Program-made: the position numbers and the translations under genes
The notes under the pieces: model-generated
What the model was told of the DNA's origin: nothing
Database searches by the model: none
The model's input: only the letters and a program-made list of their open reading frames with translations
Shown here: positions 4,018-16,295 of the stretch, one piece after another
Layout of the letters: each line of letters begins with the position of its first letter
Numbering within the stretch: position 1 is the stretch's first letter
IMG/VR virus record: IMGVR_UViG_3300032300_000143
From: an uncultured virus (IMG/VR IMGVR_UViG_3300032300_000143)
Taxonomy: Duplodnaviria; Heunggongvirae; Uroviricota; Caudoviricetes
Length of the DNA stretch: 20,000 nt
Reading direction: 5' to 3' (one strand)

Positions 4018-6687
4018 TTACTCAAAGTCAAACAATTTTGCGAATGTATTATCACTGCGAGTTGAACTGATGTCCCATTCCAAGACGCCAATCAAATTTT
4101 CTAACTTTTCATCGATAACTGCATTTTCCATTTCAGCATCGTTGAAAGGCAAATCCTTAAACCATTGAGGTAGTCTAAGTTCATCTACCGGGTAGGCTAC
4201 TGAGGTATACCCCATAGGATTATCTTTGACCTTACAGACAATTACTTTGGCACCGTCTGTAATAGCCATTGAATATTTGTCATCCATCATACGTTTTAGT
4301 GTATTCCAATTGAGACTAGCTCGAACGTGTCCCGGCATATTGGCCTTGCCGGCTTTCTTTTCTTTGTCGCGATATTCACTAATGTTGTTAGCACGTTTTG
4401 GACTACCCTTCTCCCATCCTGGGCGAGTCTTGAACTCGGTGCGAAAATTAGTAATATATTCTAACACTTCTTCTTTTCCCGCGCCATTAAGTACTTTGGT
4501 AAGTACTTCGCTGAGAAAATCTTGAATTACAACAGGGGTATCGGATCTTTTTAGATCAAGTCCCATTGCTTTGATTTTGCCAGGAGCACCCCCAGTGTCT
4601 GCTCTTTTTCCTTCTTTGTCATAATAAAGGACTGCATATCGCTTCTTGGTAATGAATAGTCCTTTGGAAGCAACAATCTCGCGACCTGCTTTGATGACTT
4701 CTCCCCTACTTTTTGGGCAGTGAAATGCATCTTGCATAAACTTTGGGAAGGTTCCATTAACAGTTTCTCCTATAGTATCGTAAAGTTCAACAACTGATTC
4801 CTTACTCCAAGGAATAGCCCCTTTCTCAATGTCCTTCTTCAACGTAGCATACGCTGAGAAGTAACAAGAGTCTGTGTCACCGTAGATGATCGCTTTGCCA
4901 ATATGATCATTATCTCCGGTAATAATTTCATTTACTTTACCTGCCATATGACGAGCAATGGCACGACCTGTTAGTGTAGTTGATTGTCCAATACGGTTGT
5001 CAAAGAATCTGCAACCAGGATTAAGAATAGCACCATACAAACTGTTCAAATTAATCTTTTTGACTAACTGACGTTTGTCCCAGTATTCTTCTTCAATCTT
5101 ATTACCGGCTGCAATACAATCTTTTAGTTTGGCCTGCATTTCTTTACGTTCAGCGTACCAACGTTTTAACAAGCCGGGAATGATACCTTCTTTCTCATAG
5201 GTAAAGATTGTGCCGTTAGCACTAAGCATCCAAGGCTGATTGCTTTCAAAGATTAGATCATAGGCCTGAGCAGCACTAAGTGTATCTACTCCGCCATCTT
5301 CCCAGTCGATAGTAATTTCTCGACCAACATTTCGTTCTAATACCGCGGCATATTCCAATGAACCAAATATACCTTCCCAAGCGGATGCAAATGATTTACC
5401 TTTGGCAATTTCAGCAGCAATATAATCTTTAGTGCCATCTTGACGCAACTGACCAACAATAGTTTCCGGACCCATGTTTAGAGCACGAATTGCTGACGGA
5501 TATAGTGAGTTAATATCTAACGAACCAATCCACTCGTGAATGCCTTTTTTGGGATAGGCCACATAAGCACCAGCGGCTTGATTACTAAAGCCTTCTTCTC
5601 GACTTATTCTATTGGGAACAATCATGCCACGCTTGTGAGCTTCATTGATAATGGCCTGTTCCGTAACTGCAACAGCACCCATTGTGGTCTGTAGTAGAAC
5701 AGTACATTCGTGTGCCAGTGTGTTAGCAAGAGCCAGAAACTTTAATTTCTTGTCTAGCTTTTCCAACAGCATACAGTCTTGTCTGTTGTACTCGATGAAT
5801 CTACGGAAATCGTTGTTGTATAACTGATCAAGTGTACCTTCGTACACAGTCTTGTTTTCACCAATTTCCATCTCGCCAATAGCGTCCAGTCGATAGGTAT
5901 GGCGTTCTTCATATGTGTACTTGCGATACAGTTCAAGACTGTCTAAGTGTACACGACCAATAAGATCGTACGTGACAGCGGCCTTACCGTATTTTTCGTA
6001 CTCACGCTTCTTGGGAAACTGATTCCACAAACAAAAACGTCTTGTATCTTCCTTACTTAGAACTTTTGTTACACGATTAACTGTGTAAGGAATATCAAAG
6101 CCTTCTGAGTTCCAACCACTTAGTACATCTGCATCTTGTATTAGATCCAAGAACATGTCTAACATATCTGCTTCGTTATCAAACAAATACGTGTTAGGAA
6201 ATTCTTCAACTTGCTTTTTAGCCTCGTCCATACTTAATGTCTTGGGAGGAATGGCCAAACAGACCATAGTCTGCATCCATTGTAGGTAGACAGCAATAGC
6301 AGTAATTGGCATAAATGCGTCCTCTGGACTAGCATAGCCACGTTCTGGATCAAAGTCTACCTCAATGTCGAACCATGCTACATTTAACTTAGGTGCATCA
6401 ACATTAAGGTAATTGTCTTCCAGACAGCGATAAATGGGATTGATATCGCTTTCAAAAAGTTTTTTGTTTGAATGAATTGCAAGTTCTTTGCGATGTTCTT
6501 TGACGTTTTTTGAACTTACTCGTGAAAGAGGTTGTCCAAAAATACTTGTGAATTTACCCTTGGCATCCGGGTAATAAAATATATGACGGGCAGGGTATTC
6601 TTTATAATGTCGTTCGCCTTTATCATTGCGTTCAACAACATTGATCATATCCTGCTCTCTATTATAGAAAGCGTCTACGTAACTCAA
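4018..6687 (-). CDS. Family B DNA polymerase (T4 gp43-like) with 3'-5' exonuclease
   Basis: ExoI FDIE, ExoII GWNSEGFDIPY, ExoIII YNRQD; polymerase motifs DINSLYPS, KINLNSLYG, YGDTDS, KKRYA; TTG start with AGGAG RBS; C-terminal KLFDFE clamp-binding-like tail. Confidence 0.97.
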   Translation of the reverse strand: MSYVDAFYNREQDMINVVERNDKGERHYKEYPARHIFYYPDAKGKFTSIFGQPLSRVSSKNVKEHRKELAIHSNKKLFESDINPIYRCLEDNYLNVDAPKLNVAWFDIEVDFDPERGYASPEDAFMPITAIAVYLQWMQTMVCLAIPPKTLSMDEAKKQVEEFPNTYLFDNEADMLDMFLDLIQDADVLSGWNSEGFDIPYTVNRVTKVLSKEDTRRFCLWNQFPKKREYEKYGKAAVTYDLIGRVHLDSLELYRKYTYEERHTYRLDAIGEMEIGENKTVYEGTLDQLYNNDFRRFIEYNRQDCMLLEKLDKKLKFLALANTLAHECTVLLQTTMGAVAVTEQAIINEAHKRGMIVPNRISREEGFSNQAAGAYVAYPKKGIHEWIGSLDINSLYPSAIRALNMGPETIVGQLRQDGTKDYIAAEIAKGKSFASAWEGIFGSLEYAAVLERNVGREITIDWEDGGVDTLSAAQAYDLIFESNQPWMLSANGTIFTYEKEGIIPGLLKRWYAERKEMQAKLKDCIAAGNKIEEEYWDKRQLVKKINLNSLYGAILNPGCRFFDNRIGQSTTLTGRAIARHMAGKVNEIITGDNDHIGKAIIYGDTDSCYFSAYATLKKDIEKGAIPWSKESVVELYDTIGETVNGTFPKFMQDAFHCPKSRGEVIKAGREIVASKGLFITKKRYAVLYYDKEGKRADTGGAPGKIKAMGLDLKRSDTPVVIQDFLSEVLTKVLNGAGKEEVLEYITNFRTEFKTRPGWEKGSPKRANNISEYRDKEKKAGKANMPGHVRASLNWNTLKRMMDDKYSMAITDGAKVIVCKVKDNPMGYTSVAYPVDELRLPQWFKDLPFNDAEMENAVIDEKLENLIGVLEWDISSTRSDNTFAKLFDFE

Positions 6688-6699
6688 ATTTTTCTCCTA

Positions 6700-6754
6700 T
6701 GTCTTTTGTGGCAGACAAATACCGAATGTGCGGTTTATGGCCCAGCTTACCATC
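6700..6754 (-). promoter_or_regulatory. Structured leader of the polymerase gene: two hairpins with GCCAYAAA 8-nt loops (putative translational operator)
   Basis: Minus strand GC(T)GG-GCCATAAA-CCGC (6746-6730) and TGTCT-GCCACAAA-AGACA (6717-6700); the second lies immediately before TAGGAG. Confidence 0.5.
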
Positions 6755-6764
6755 TATTGTATAT

Positions 6765-7058
6765 TTAATTACTTAGCATTCTGATGAGGCCGACAGTGTC
6801 AATTGCGGTTAGCAGACAATAGTTAGCCAGCATACCAAAAGATTTCCTAGTCCAAGCAGCCCAAGCATACATAGCACAGCCAGCGATCCAAATGGGATAA
6901 AGAGCAAGAAGCGGCGGAGTGGGGACTGTGAGCGCCATAGTAATCGCGCAGCCAATGCTAATAGCCCAAGCAAGCAACTCAACAGCAAAGCGAACTCTGT
7001 TAGACTTAAAGTCATCCTTTATCCACTGTATTGTTGGTGCAAATATTGTGCCAATCAT
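6765..7058 (-). CDS. Small membrane protein with about 3 TM helices
   Basis: 97 aa with three hydrophobic segments; ATGA overlap with the upstream gene. Confidence 0.8.
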   Translation of the reverse strand: MIGTIFAPTIQWIKDDFKSNRVRFAVELLAWAISIGCAITMALTVPTPPLLALYPIWIAGCAMYAWAAWTRKSFGMLANYCLLTAIDTVGLIRMLSN

Positions 7059-7318
7059 TCCGGTAGACGTTTAGTGACACCGAGGATCATTTCGATATCA
7101 TTCCATTCTTGTTCGTGATCTTTCCAATTATCTTTGTGTGCAATCTTAATTGCCTTGTTGATAATGCTGGGTTTAATTTGTAATTCTTCTGCAACTGCTT
7201 TAACAGTTTCTTTAAGACCCTCTGACAGATCTTCAATTTCGCGAATCACATTAGAACCTTCATTAATAAGACGTTCCAGTTTGGCTTTTTCTTCGGGACC
7301 ATACATTCTTGTAGACAT
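7055..7318 (-). CDS. T4 DsbA-like double-stranded DNA-binding protein
   Basis: 87-aa helical protein; ...KETVKAVAEELQIKPSIINKAIKIAHKDN... parallels T4 DsbA in size and residue pattern; AGGAG RBS. Confidence 0.6.
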   Translation of the reverse strand: MSTRMYGPEEKAKLERLINEGSNVIREIEDLSEGLKETVKAVAEELQIKPSIINKAIKIAHKDNWKDHEQEWNDIEMILGVTKRLPE

Positions 7319-7337: not shown

Positions 7338-7366
7338 ATTATATAGTCAAAGAAAAAGCCGGTCAA
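7338..7366 (-). promoter_or_regulatory. Sigma70-type promoter for the replication operon
   Basis: Minus strand TTGACC-N17-TATAAT; the -35 box lies inside the terminator hairpin. Confidence 0.75.
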
Positions 7367-13309: not shown

Positions 13310-13987
13310 CTAGTATTTATCGACTACTATGCATTCATATACCTTACCTAGCACCTGTGAATCCCGCATTTTCAACATCAGCAACGTGTTTGCATCCTCA
13401 ACATACATATATCTTCGATCCCAATACCAATCAGTAGTTAAAAACCAAATTTTAACAGAATTAGAAATTAAAATTTTATCATTCTGGGTACCTAACCAAT
13501 TTATATATCTAATTTTAGAATCCTTATCTCCTTTAAGTTTGTGTGGAAGAAGATAAACTTTGTACCTGTATTTGCTATGAGGTAATTTTTTTGTTAGAAT
13601 AAAATCAGTATTTTCCAGCAGTTCTAAATTATTTCCTGTGGGTGCGTATCTATTTACGATAATGGATTCAAACTTTAATGATATTGTGTCAAATATATCT
13701 ACATTGTTTGCATACAGATCAATAGTATTAGCTTCAATGCGTTTGGCAAAGTCTTGCTGATTTAAACCTGATAAAAATGTAGTAAGCTCTAAAAAAGATA
13801 TTTTATTTTTTAGAGCTTTGTGATGCGAAGAAAAAACACTCTTAGTGTATGTTGTCGGACTCTTAAGAAAATTAATGGTTTCATTATATCCAAGTAGTCT
13901 ATACAAAGACACACCCGGGCAAAACAGTGTGATTTTGTACAACCACTTGTTGTAAAATTTTTTCTTGGTAAGTTTAGGTTTCTGCAT
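13310..13987 (-). CDS. Hypothetical protein, AT-rich, possibly with an internal two-domain duplication
   Basis: Likely start MQKPKL at 13987 overlapping the clpA end; KKFYNKWLYKITL and KKLPHSKYRYKVYL are similar segments. Confidence 0.75.
   Translation of the reverse strand: MQKPKLTKKKFYNKWLYKITLFCPGVSLYRLLGYNETINFLKSPTTYTKSVFSSHHKALKNKISFLELTTFLSGLNQQDFAKRIEANTIDLYANNVDIFDTISLKFESIIVNRYAPTGNNLELLENTDFILTKKLPHSKYRYKVYLLPHKLKGDKDSKIRYINWLGTQNDKILISNSVKIWFLTTDWYWDRRYMYVEDANTLLMLKMRDSQVLGKVYECIVVDKY
13314..13319 (-). promoter_or_regulatory. T4-like late promoter core (TAAATA)
   Basis: Minus strand GATAAATA-CTAG-ATG(13309); no SD. Confidence 0.55.
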
Positions 13988-16295
13988 TTGTCGTAACAGC
14001 CGGTAATGACAAAGCATGTTTCCTCGCTTTCTTTTCAGCTTTGGTCAAGGGTTTTTGAATTTCCTCAACAACAAAATCCAAGTCATCATTGACAACATTG
14101 ATCTTGACTAATCCGCCTTCTTTTAAATCACCAAACAACACTCTACGACTCAATGGCGATTTGATCTTGTTGTCGATTAATCTTGCTAAAGGTCTAGCAC
14201 CCATCTTTTTATCATAGCCCTTGGCTGCCAACCACTTGGTTGTTTCTGTATTTACACTAATTTCAATACCCTTGTCTTTTAACTGATTGTTTAGTTCCCC
14301 AACAAATTTCTTTACAATCTGTACAACAACTTCTTGACTGAGCTTGGTAAATTTAATCACAGCATCTAAACGATTACGGAACTCCGGAGCAAAGAATTTT
14401 TTAATTGCCTTGTCATCTTCTCCGTCCTTTGATAAATCTCCAAATCCAATGGTATTGTTTTCATTGTCCCTAGCCCCGAGATTGCTGGTCATAACAAGTA
14501 TACAGTTACGCCCATCTGCTTGTTTGCCATTTGATCCTGTAACAAATCCATTGTCCATAAACTGCAATAGAATATTGCTAACATCTGGATGTGCTTTTTC
14601 AATCTCGTCTAGCAACAGCACACAATTTGGTGTTTCCTGTAACTTGGTTATGAGTTGTCCGGCATTATCTTCATAACCAACATACCCAGGAGGAGCACCG
14701 ATTAATCTAGCCACTGAATGCTTTTCTTGATACTCACTCATATCAAATCTTACCAAGGGCATTGACATTTTTTCACTGAGCTGTCTAGCAGTTTCAGTTT
14801 TACCGCAGCCAGTTGGCCCAAGAAACAAGAAACTACCAATAGGTTTATTAGGAGTCTTCATTCCTGCCTGCGCTACAAATATCTTATCCAATAGATTATC
14901 CACAGCTTCATCTTGTCCGAACACAGCAGATTTCATACCGTTTTCTAGATCTGCAAGATTTTTGCTTTCTTTCTGTGCCACGTTCTCCAACGGCATATTA
15001 ATCATTTTGCTTAGTTCATAGGTAACCTGTTCTACATCAACAATTTGATCAACACCTTCTTCGATAACAGTATCTTTGATTTTATATCTTGCAGCAGCAC
15101 AGTCTAAAATATCAATGGCCTTGTCCGGCAACTTTTTATCATTCATGTATTTCATTGACAGCTTTACAGCTTGATCAATAGCAGCATCTGTGATTTTAAC
15201 ATTGTGATGTTGCTCATAGTACTTGCGAATACCTTTGATAATTTTTACACTGAGTTCCGGAGTAGGTTCATCAACAATTACACGTTGGAATCTGCGCATT
15301 AGAGCACGATCCTTTTCAAAATGCTTGCGATATTCTTCCCATGTAGTTGATGCAATTAATTTAATAACACCTTTGGTTAATATAGGCTTAAGCATATTAG
15401 ACATATCGTTGCTGGATTGACTAGATGCACCAGCACCTTGCATCATGTGAGCTTCGTCAATAAACAAGATTATCTTGCCTTTCTTTTCTAGTGCGGTCAA
15501 TACTGCTTTAAGACGTTCTTCAAAATCACCGCGATACTTGCTTCCGGCAAGCAATGCTGAGATGTCAAGAGTGTAAACACTGTGATCCTGAATAAACTTA
15601 GGAACTTTCTTTTCAAAGATCTTGCGGGCCAGTCCTTCTGCAATAGCAGTCTTACCAACTCCGGGATCACCTACCATCAGCACATTACATTTACTGCGTC
15701 GAGCAAGTATCAATTGTATTTTTTCTAATTCTTCATCTCTGCCAATAACTGGATCTATCTTGCGTTGTTTGGCGTGCAAACTTAAATTTGTACAGAATTG
15801 ATTTAATATTTTTTCTACTTGATTTACATTCACTACTTGATGTTCACTTTCTTCTTCTTCTTGAATTATGTTTTCGTGAATATATTTCACAAATTTTTCT
15901 TTGTGTATTCCGCCTTTATTAAAGAAATAAAAGGCAAAACTATTTTTTTCACTTAGTATACTTGCAATAACATCAAATATTTCTATCTTTTGTCGACCAC
16001 TGAACAAGACTTGACTAAAACAACGATTGAGAACTCTTTCTACAGAATGAGTTTTTTTTGGTTTCTCAACGGCTGCATTTTTAATATCTTCAAGATTATT
16101 TTTGAGATAATGCTCTAGATTGGTTTTAATAAAATTAGCATCGGCACCGTATTGCTCTATGAGTTTGAATGTCGGTTCATCACTTATCATACCAAATGCT
16201 AGATGTTCGATAGTGATATATTCGTGTGTCAGCTGTTTAGCAACTCCTACAGAAAATTCAAAGATATTTTGTAGACTTTGACTTGGTTCGATCAT
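13974..16295 (-). CDS. clpA: ATP-dependent Clp protease ATP-binding subunit ClpA-like
   Basis: N-domain HEYITIEHL; DPVIGRDEE; two Walker A (GDPGVGKT, GPTGCGKT) and Walker B (FIDEAH, LLDEIEKAH) motifs; pore loops KYRG and GYVG; IGF ClpP-docking loop; no ClpB middle domain. Confidence 0.93.
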   Translation of the reverse strand: MIEPSQSLQNIFEFSVGVAKQLTHEYITIEHLAFGMISDEPTFKLIEQYGADANFIKTNLEHYLKNNLEDIKNAAVEKPKKTHSVERVLNRCFSQVLFSGRQKIEIFDVIASILSEKNSFAFYFFNKGGIHKEKFVKYIHENIIQEEEESEHQVVNVNQVEKILNQFCTNLSLHAKQRKIDPVIGRDEELEKIQLILARRSKCNVLMVGDPGVGKTAIAEGLARKIFEKKVPKFIQDHSVYTLDISALLAGSKYRGDFEERLKAVLTALEKKGKIILFIDEAHMMQGAGASSQSSNDMSNMLKPILTKGVIKLIASTTWEEYRKHFEKDRALMRRFQRVIVDEPTPELSVKIIKGIRKYYEQHHNVKITDAAIDQAVKLSMKYMNDKKLPDKAIDILDCAAARYKIKDTVIEEGVDQIVDVEQVTYELSKMINMPLENVAQKESKNLADLENGMKSAVFGQDEAVDNLLDKIFVAQAGMKTPNKPIGSFLFLGPTGCGKTETARQLSEKMSMPLVRFDMSEYQEKHSVARLIGAPPGYVGYEDNAGQLITKLQETPNCVLLLDEIEKAHPDVSNILLQFMDNGFVTGSNGKQADGRNCILVMTSNLGARDNENNTIGFGDLSKDGEDDKAIKKFFAPEFRNRLDAVIKFTKLSQEVVVQIVKKFVGELNNQLKDKGIEISVNTETTKWLAAKGYDKKMGARPLARLIDNKIKSPLSRRVLFGDLKEGGLVKINVVNDDLDFVVEEIQKPLTKAEKKARKHALSLPAVTTNAET

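Follow-up and report, generated by a model that had tools for sequence, protein, structure and literature searches.

The locus considered here raises the question of whether the short leader in front of a phage DNA polymerase gene contains a regulatory RNA and, if so, by what that RNA would be read. The sequence analysed (hereafter the window) is the whole stretch of 20,000 nucleotides of an uncultured virus, IMG/VR record IMGVR_UViG_3300032300_000143. On its minus strand, 74 nt separate an upstream ORF from the ORF of the polymerase, and an earlier note, made from the letters of the window, had described in this interval two tandem hairpins with different stems and near-identical 8-nt loops, suggesting a duplicated operator or another ligand-binding RNA. 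The letters are as described on the minus strand: the 74 nt hold both hairpins, at 6751-6694, between the stop codon of the upstream ORF and the Shine-Dalgarno (SD) sequence and TTG start codon of the polymerase ORF.

The 889-aa product matches the Pfam DNA_pol_B family (1.9e-34) and an exonuclease domain (2.1e-19). Its nearest cultured relative is the polymerase of Sinorhizobium phage Phosso, with 50% identity across 99% of its length, followed among the cultured jumbo phages by those of Agrobacterium phage Atu_ph07 (46.5%) and of the 121Q/Rak2-like group (about 43%); a search of a phage collection at the DNA level with 1.1 kb from the locus gave no match. It is noted that the polymerase of Atu_ph07 (L108, 1501-4470) is annotated as two adjacent CDS. 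The 97-aa upstream ORF has a weak Pfam match to YwiC (E 7.8e-5), under the curated cut-off. The start of the polymerase gene is placed at a position common to relatives that use ATG there. The weak TTG start codon pointed out in the earlier note is true of the window and is common only in its closest relatives, whereas most others have ATG at the same place, and thus the weakness of the start is not a conserved property of the leader. The coordinates are collected in Table 1.

Table 1. Positions of the polymerase leader, its parts and the two flanking genes in the window.
Feature	Position	Strand	Remarks
Family-B (T4 gp43-type) DNA polymerase gene	4018..6687	-	TTG start 6687-6685; 889 aa
Whole conserved leader, match to covariance model R1	6682..6766	-	From upstream stop codon to polymerase codon 2; 96.3 bits, E 3e-25
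Shine-Dalgarno AGGAG	6694..6698	-	From sequence; kept in alignments
Hairpin 2, 5-bp stem TGTCT/AGACA, 8-nt loop GCCACAAA (6712-6705)	6700..6717	-	
Unit 2 GGT, proposed 5' strand of second pseudoknot, inside near-invariant GGTATTTG	6721..6723	-	
Hairpin 1, 4-bp stem with bulged T 6744, 8-nt loop GCCATAAA (6741-6734)	6730..6746	-	
Unit 1 GGT, proposed 5' strand of pseudoknot helix S1	6749..6751	-	From column pairing
TAAATA box, overlapping upstream stop TAA 6767-6765	6762..6767	-	Candidate, promoter-like
Upstream ORF, 97 aa	6765..7058	-	Stop TAA 6767-6765; 5' limit of the element, outside it

In hairpin 1 the stem is formed by G6746, C6745, G6743 and G6742 with C6733, C6732, G6731 and C6730, and the linker between the GGT and the stem is AA. 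In unit 2 the corresponding linker is ATT, and the end of hairpin 2 is followed by TA and then GGAG, so that a gap of 2 nt separates it from the SD sequence.

Taken by itself, the window gives no reason to single out these hairpins. The fold of the 121-nt leader stretch is not special (z = +0.71), and the window contains 4 copies of the motif GCCAYAAA where 1.98 are expected, a count that is reached in 27 of 200 shuffles. On the window sequence alone the two hairpins are no more than chance, and the argument below is based on the comparison with relatives.

A scan of IMG/VR with the polymerase of the window matched at least 601 stretches, from which 80 loci with polymerases 78-100% identical were kept. 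Their leaders gave an alignment (A1) of 50 distinct 84-nt sequences, in which compensatory changes occur in both hairpins as described, and from A1 the covariance model R1 was built. The sample was then widened by IMG/VR scans with the polymerases of loci L058 and L145 and of phage Phosso. At E < 0.01, R1 matched 76 of the 80 loci of the first set, 75 of the 79 new loci of the second set and 64 of the 65 new loci of the third set, counts that are not additive because the sets share contigs. At all 9 loci that R1 missed, the polymerase match begins inside the protein at a contig edge, and the leader is absent because the 5' end of the polymerase gene is off the contig. In total there are 304 loci, 293 of them with leader, giving 180 distinct 100-nt leaders. 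Among these, 123 distinct cores belong to polymerases with identity of at least 69%, of which 95 were used and 28 near-duplicates left out; together with the window, L183, L262 and L282 they form the R1-aligned alignment A2 of 99 rows, 98 of them distinct.

In A2 the pairing of both stems is retained while their letters change. For hairpin 2, 99.8% of the cells are paired and double changes occur in all five pairs, with the pair of columns 68-81, for example, being AU in 38, CG in 34 and GC in 26 leaders. For hairpin 1, double changes occur in all four model pairs (pair 31-41: GC 56, AU 40), and the lower fraction of paired cells, 84.9%, arises because the bulge moves and some of the stems have 5 bp. 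The direct parse of each leader, with one bulge allowed, finds a hairpin 1 stem of at least 4 bp in 97 of the 98 leaders, with 46 distinct stem sequences, the sole exception (L253) having a 9-nt loop that the parse overlooks; a hairpin 2 stem of at least 4 bp is found in all 98, with 36 distinct stem sequences. For the whole structure, 94.8% of cells are paired against 81.1% in shuffles, and the covariation score is 0.408 against 0.165, with none of 500 shuffles reaching 0.408 and the slid controls reaching at most 0.079. Moreover, G-U cells number 8 in hairpin 2 and non-standard cells only 1, in keeping with an RNA of the same sense as the mRNA. Note also that the combination of plain MAFFT with RNAalifold proposed GGU:GCC and CCG:YGG helices in place of hairpin 1. 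This alternative, which results from misplaced gaps in the plain MAFFT alignment, was rejected; its CCG:YGG helix is broken exactly where the whole stem of hairpin 1 has been replaced.

The loops behave in the opposite way to the stems: stem letters vary across relatives and loop letters are fixed. Loop 1 is constant as GCC-A-Y-A-A-N, with GCCATAAA in 41, GCCATAAT in 21 and GCCACAAA in 9 leaders, plus others, and loop 2 is constant as GCC-N-N-A-A-A across the distinct leaders. The columns of the loops and of the GGY triplets have a pairwise identity of 93%, as compared with 38% at the shared four-fold third positions at the start of the polymerase gene, which places the neutral sites close to saturation and shows selection on the leader. 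Both the covariation of the stems and the conservation of the loops, the absence of which in relatives would have spoken against a regulatory RNA, are thus found in 98 distinct leaders. Together they show a selected RNA fold of the sense strand, which would form the structured 5' leader of the polymerase mRNA.

A further contact can be deduced from the GGY triplet that stands 2-3 nt upstream of each stem and that co-varies with the GCC of the loop. In unit 1, columns 19-21 of A2 pair with the loop columns 32-34 in 99% of cells: the pair 19-34 is GC in 94, AU in 3, GU in 1 and unpaired in 0 leaders, the pair 20-33 is GC in 97, and the pair 21-32 is UG in 77, CG in 17 and UA in 2. In unit 2, columns 55/57/58 pair with columns 70-72 in 95.6% of cells, in a model alignment that shifts the unit 2 triplet of L262 and L282 by one column. 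When the leaders are placed on the polymerase tree (IQ-TREE in quick mode, 98 rows, L148 left out), the double change from G-C to A-U is found in three separate lineages, namely L223, L235 and L262/L282, with 0 mismatches among the 98. L223 has A-U while its sister L179 retains G-C (support 96), L235 has A-U while its sister L245 retains G-C (support 100), and the outlying pair L262/L282 has AGT with loop GCT in both units. Since only unit 1 is altered in L223 and L235, the contact would be made within a unit and not between the units. In addition, the ACC loop variants (L228, L250 and L183) all accompany GGT, giving a U-A pair.

The resulting topology is a helix S1 of 3 bp, a linker of 2-3 nt, a helix S2 (the hairpin stem) of 4-5 bp, a spacer of 0 nt and an A-rich loop of 5 nt, lengths which we take to be those of a textbook H-type pseudoknot. 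Because GGY and the loop GCC co-vary, it is probable that each unit is a mini H-type pseudoknot in which the GCC of the loop pairs back to the GGY. We go no further than probable, since true covariation is seen in a single pair out of the three in S1; the two pairs besides 19-34 are nearly invariant or changed on one side only. For the second helix of the H-type fold, the hairpin stems, double changes are found in 9 of the 9 stem pairs. The earlier note had proposed a 5-bp pseudoknot between ATGGT and GCCAT. Its inner part, the GGY:GCC pairing, stands, with 99% of cells paired, but of its outer pairs one is present in only 28 of 97 leaders and the other in 72 of 98; the 5-bp version was thus rejected for the 3-bp GGY:GCC core, the outer two pairs not being conserved.

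We now consider where the element occurs. The leader of the window is matched by R1 with 96.3 bits, and the next best match in the window has 10.1 bits. In 5 large records of relatives, one of which has 353,123 bp and an estimated completeness of 98%, R1 has one strong match each. A second match, of 15.9 bits, in two of the large records lies inside a clamp-loader-like coding region and was taken as chance. In the 353-kb relative, stems of at least 4 bp around GCC-N-N-A-A-N number 15, as compared with 11.2 +/- 2.7 in shuffles, and among these 15 only the one in the polymerase leader abuts an SD sequence. In IMG/VR, the unit 2 pattern was found in at least 120 stretches; among the matches listed, 120 of 120 have a perfect 5-bp stem and all lie upstream of the polymerase gene, 118 directly before the polymerase N-terminus and the remaining 2 with the polymerase start about 170-200 nt further, behind a small inserted ORF. 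Moreover, the element is retained where the upstream gene differs between lineages. The reading of the earlier note as a cis-regulatory RNA with two related units and a probable pseudoknot contact is thus strongly supported by the covariation, the loop conservation, the uniqueness in the genome and the exclusive linkage to the polymerase.

Outside this group the element was not encountered. The leaders of the cultured relatives Phosso, Atu_ph07 and 121Q contain no such element (in 121Q a terminator-like hairpin with a T-run is seen upstream of the polymerase start), a longer pattern gave no match in one genome each of 185,579 prokaryote species, and in the region of T4 gene 43 the best R1 score was 10.5 bits, with no match on the operator. 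The scan for a known RNA family that had been suggested gave none: Rfam 15, applied to 6400-7100 of the window with E up to 10, yielded only two irrelevant matches of about 15 bits, and at the gathering score there were 0 matches in the loci of five relatives. Searches of full-text literature found no description of the element. As far as these records go, the element belongs to a large group of uncultured giant (jumbo) phages.

The distribution within the wider clade was followed by sorting the 180 distinct leaders, with a regex classifier, by polymerase identity to the window. Two units are present in all 33 leaders at identity of at least 90% (one unit 0, none 0), in 36 at 80-89% (one unit 1, none 0), in 47 at 70-79% (one unit 9, none 4, an inserted ORF having pushed the element upstream in these four), in 4 of the 45 distinct leaders at 60-69% (one unit 14, none 27) and in 0 below 60%, where one unit is likewise found in 0 and none in 5 of 5; the loci at 70-89% that were classed as one-unit and given to R1 matched as full elements. 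The one-unit form is a GCCAYAAN-loop hairpin after GGC or GGT, with its 3' arm inside or touching GGAG, and since the 3' arm of the stem is part of GGAG, the one-unit fold would hide the SD sequence. The two-unit form looks like a duplication of the unit proximal to the SD sequence. In other leaders at 60-69% the polymerase start overlaps the upstream stop and there is no leader at all. In L273, L281, L285, L288 and L289, and likewise in L297, L304, L307, L309 and L319, the polymerase start overlaps or abuts the stop of an upstream membrane-protein gene and no intergenic leader is left. The overlapping start and stop in the leaderless relatives suggests that translational coupling takes the place of the operator. 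As 27 of the 45 leaders at 60-69% are without a unit, some of them with overlapping starts, the control is dispensable and would be an accessory, acquired or lost in the course of the wider clade's evolution.

Two side observations on these leaders are noted. In L183 (1398-1500), L346, L370, L201, L226 and L230 a small ORF of about 35-60 codons lies between the element and the polymerase, overlapping the polymerase start in L183, and in the small-ORF lineages the element precedes the small ORF. In the one-unit relatives L294, L278, L312, L321, L270 and similar, a further conserved hairpin is seen about 40-70 nt upstream of the start, with a stem that covaries as GCTC/GAGC, GCCC/GGGC and GTTC/GAAC, a loop ACGTYAC or CGTAA, GAGTC before it and CATGAATCA after it; this hairpin may be an extra module of the same leader family.

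Regarding transcription, 57 of the 98 distinct leaders have a TAAATA box upstream of the first GGY, no more than 45 nt away and in 51 of them at 9-12 nt, and many of the leaders without it have TAAGTA or a TATAAT-like box at the same place. The TAAATA box is possibly a promoter, from which transcription would begin immediately ahead of the first module. The alternative is coding constraint, the box overlapping the upstream stop and C-terminal codons. A scan for promoters of the sigma-70 type found no site at the element, with the nearest good one at 7366-7338; there, on the minus strand (7338-7366), the window has a near-consensus sigma-70-type promoter, TTGACC, 17 nt and TATAAT (11 of 12), upstream of an 87-aa ORF (7055-7318, minus strand) resembling DsbA, a phage transcriptional regulator. 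The polymerase may be co-transcribed from this promoter. Contigs from freshwater metatranscriptomes cover the element in 3 of the 4 runs examined, although such libraries can also hold DNA, and one RNA-library contig extends from 6491, inside the polymerase gene, across both hairpins as far as 6755 and then continues into the upstream sequence of a relative. Because the libraries can hold DNA and the contigs show no ends, these data only weakly suggest the leader in RNA.

We propose, tentatively, that the leader is a translational operator specific to the polymerase gene, most plausibly an autogenous one, a reading that we regard as possible and somewhat short of probable. In the proposed mechanism, the leader would consist of two tandem modules, each with a GGY, a linker of 2-3 nt, a stem of 4-5 bp with free sequence and an 8-nt loop of GCC followed by A-rich letters. 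In the folded module the 3-bp helix S1 (GGY:GCC) and the 4-5-bp helix S2 would form, with the A-rich loop crossing S1. A protein binding to the folded modules would then block the access of the 30S subunit to the SD sequence, and this protein would be the polymerase itself when it is off the DNA, as in T4, RB69 and RB49. By this leader the phage would probably limit the amount of its polymerase. That a protein binds, and which one, we infer by analogy and from the specificity for a single gene. The reason for giving the autogenous operator this much credit is that, with one target in a 353-kb genome, the gene's own product is the simplest binder and no RegA-family gene was found, there being 0 matches to the RegA family (PF01818) in the 98%-complete 353-kb relative. 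Selection experiments on at least one other nucleic-acid polymerase recover RNA pseudoknot ligands, which makes binding by the polymerase plausible while not being evidence here. On the other side, DNA polymerase of this kind works as a monomer, and the two sites for such an enzyme need explaining, which counts against the autogenous reading. It also counts against it that some T4-related polymerases do not autoregulate, according to passages of the review by Uzan and Miller (PMC3014915). Further points on this side are the relatives at 60-69% polymerase identity, which often have a single unit or none, and the differences from the T4 operator in sequence and loop register that are set out below.

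If the binder is not the polymerase, it could be another protein of the phage or the host, that is, a dedicated repressor or activator, perhaps a dimer reading both modules, which would block the SD sequence or make it accessible. Two modules with the same GGY/GCC/A-rich signature would suit a dimer or a cooperative binder, the conserved single-stranded linker GGTATTTG suggests direct contacts, and most ORFs of the window are without assigned function. We nevertheless consider this rather unlikely, since it would be unusual for any but an autogenous regulator to have a single target in a genome of 353 kb, no RegA-family gene was found in the nearly complete relative, and no conserved neighbour gene on the upstream side travels with the element. 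Tertiary structure or a small ligand, and not a protein, could also account for the strict conservation of loop and linker. In a tandem small-molecule riboswitch each mini pseudoknot would be an aptamer, and its ligand-induced folding beside the SD sequence would set the translation of the polymerase. Several classes of translational riboswitch typically take the shape of small H-type pseudoknots beside the SD sequence, and guanidine-II has tandem hairpins with identical loops, both likenesses being in favour of this explanation, as are the near-invariant nucleotides at the S1/loop junction and the hiding of the SD sequence by folding in the one-unit relatives, with the stem 3' arm within GGAG. 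By contrast, the element is confined to one gene family and one phage clade (120 of 120 among the matches listed), with no match of the pattern tried in the genomes of the 185,579 species, the modules have only about 21-24 nt each, the SD sequence lies outside the structure in the two-unit form, and no Rfam family matches. A riboswitch is thus improbable by our estimate, and the same low standing applies to its specific version, riboswitches of a new class whose GGY:GCC mini pseudoknots would be folded by a nucleotide-related metabolite, coupling the synthesis of the polymerase to the supply of precursors. If it were true, the 21-24-nt modules would be the smallest tandem aptamers yet, confined to a clade of uncultured jumbo phages.

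It is also conceivable, while unlikely, that the element acts with no ligand at all, by protecting the mRNA from RNases in the manner of a 5' cap, by directing its processing, or by offering the ribosome a standby or enhancer site. Stable 5' structures are generally known to protect mRNAs, transcription may start from the TAA(A/G)TA box, 9-12 nt upstream, in which case the transcript would open with the first module, and the closest relatives, with their weak TTG start codon, might depend on such assistance. Neither protection nor standby, however, needs the invariant letters of loop and linker or the conserved pseudoknot pair; moreover, the sigma-70 scan found no promoter at the element and one RNA-library contig spans the polymerase gene, the element and upstream sequence. 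What we regard as very improbable is a site at the DNA level (a protein operator or an origin) or a chance pair of inverted repeats. The insignificance of fold and motif count on the single sequence would be expected from it, but the stem letters vary with complementarity kept and with G-U pairs present, which is the signature of RNA pairing and unlike a DNA palindrome read by a protein, and the observed covariation is reached by 0 of 500 shuffles.

Returning to the autogenous operator, we compare the leader with known systems. In T4, gp43 represses its own translation via a hairpin and a sequence overlapping the ribosome-binding site (RBS), as described in passages of the Uzan and Miller text (PMC3014915), and in the T4 record a 5-bp stem with an 8-nt loop stands 8 nt before the SD sequence. 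The gene 43 operators of T4, RB69 and RB49 are like the leader here in their position in the leader of a family-B polymerase gene, adjoining the RBS, and in having a single target gene, and in hairpin 2 the stem has 5 bp and the loop 8 nt, as in the T4 hairpin, with A-rich letters in the 3' half of the loop. Operators of the T4 type, however, consist of one hairpin of about 16-18 nt, which in T4 stands about 8 nt from the SD sequence, whereas here there are two modules, the second ending 2 nt from it; binding by the polymerase is established for T4, while here it would follow by analogy. In the gene 43 passages of the review the top of the hairpin is described as identical in T4 and RB69, the UAAC/UAAA loop bases as important, and pseudoknot formation as lacking evidence in the T4 operator (PMC3014915), whereas a pseudoknot contact is likely here. 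The likeness of the YAAA loop end to these UAAC/UAAA bases of T4/RB49 (PMC3014915) was given little weight because the register of the loop differs from that in T4. Both the letters and the register of the T4 operator loop differ from the GCC-N-Y-A-A-A here, with no sequence homology, and R1 has no match at the T4 operator. Judged by its letters, the element is no homologue of the operator in front of T4 gene 43; it would work like it while standing outside that family.

Other leaders resemble it in other ways. The gene 32 operator of T4-type phages, where a leader pseudoknot is the nucleation site for the gene's own product, the single-strand binding protein gp32 (PMC3014915, in the parts on gene 32), is alike in that a replication gene carries an RNA pseudoknot in its leader. 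It differs in having one pseudoknot of larger size, which lies about 40-70 nt upstream and precedes an A/U-rich tract that lacks structure, and belongs to another gene with a sequence unrelated to the element here. The thrS leader has two like hairpins, resembling tRNA, for a dimeric enzyme. In rpsO a leader pseudoknot next to the SD sequence is bound by the gene's own product, S15, as noted in the same review (PMC3014915). The rpsO and thrS operators are thus alike in being folded leaders beside the SD sequence bound by the own product; they differ in belonging to host genes, in their unrelated sequences and in that their folds mimic the normal RNA ligand of the protein, whereas no mimicry can be named here. 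RegA acts on many sites that are without RNA structure and of variable sequence, with SELEX ligands that are A+U-rich, in the review's passages on RegA (PMC3014915); such sites are unstructured, whereas the element here is structured. Among the riboswitches the small pseudoknot classes are alike in size and in position on the SD side, preQ1-I, SAM-II, guanidine-III and guanidine-II being very small pseudoknots or paired hairpins upstream of or overlapping the SD sequence. The element differs from these riboswitches in that the short helix is conserved and the long helix is free, with no multi-gene regulon.

Autogenous control of a replicative DNA polymerase is so far known from a few T4-type phages. 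If the autogenous reading is true, the same logic would extend to jumbo phages that are only distantly related, with about 43-50% polymerase identity to cultured relatives, and the operator would be built from two miniature pseudoknot modules instead of one hairpin. The specific recognition of RNA by a DNA polymerase could then be tested on a second ligand, an unrelated and very compact one. Whatever binds to it, the leader represents a new class of structured RNA, supported by covariation and available in about 100 distinct natural variants, which is useful for RNA annotation of phage metagenomes and which offers an evolutionary series from no leader, via one unit overlapping the SD sequence, to two units.

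Finally, we note two other genes on the minus strand of the window. The ORF at 13974-16295 encodes a 773-aa ClpB/Hsp104-like double AAA+ ATPase (AAA_2 1e-57, ClpB_D2-small 4e-25, Clp_N 1.4e-8), and the 203-aa ORF at 11020-11631 matches phage cytidyltransferase families (phrog_3041, 8e-50).
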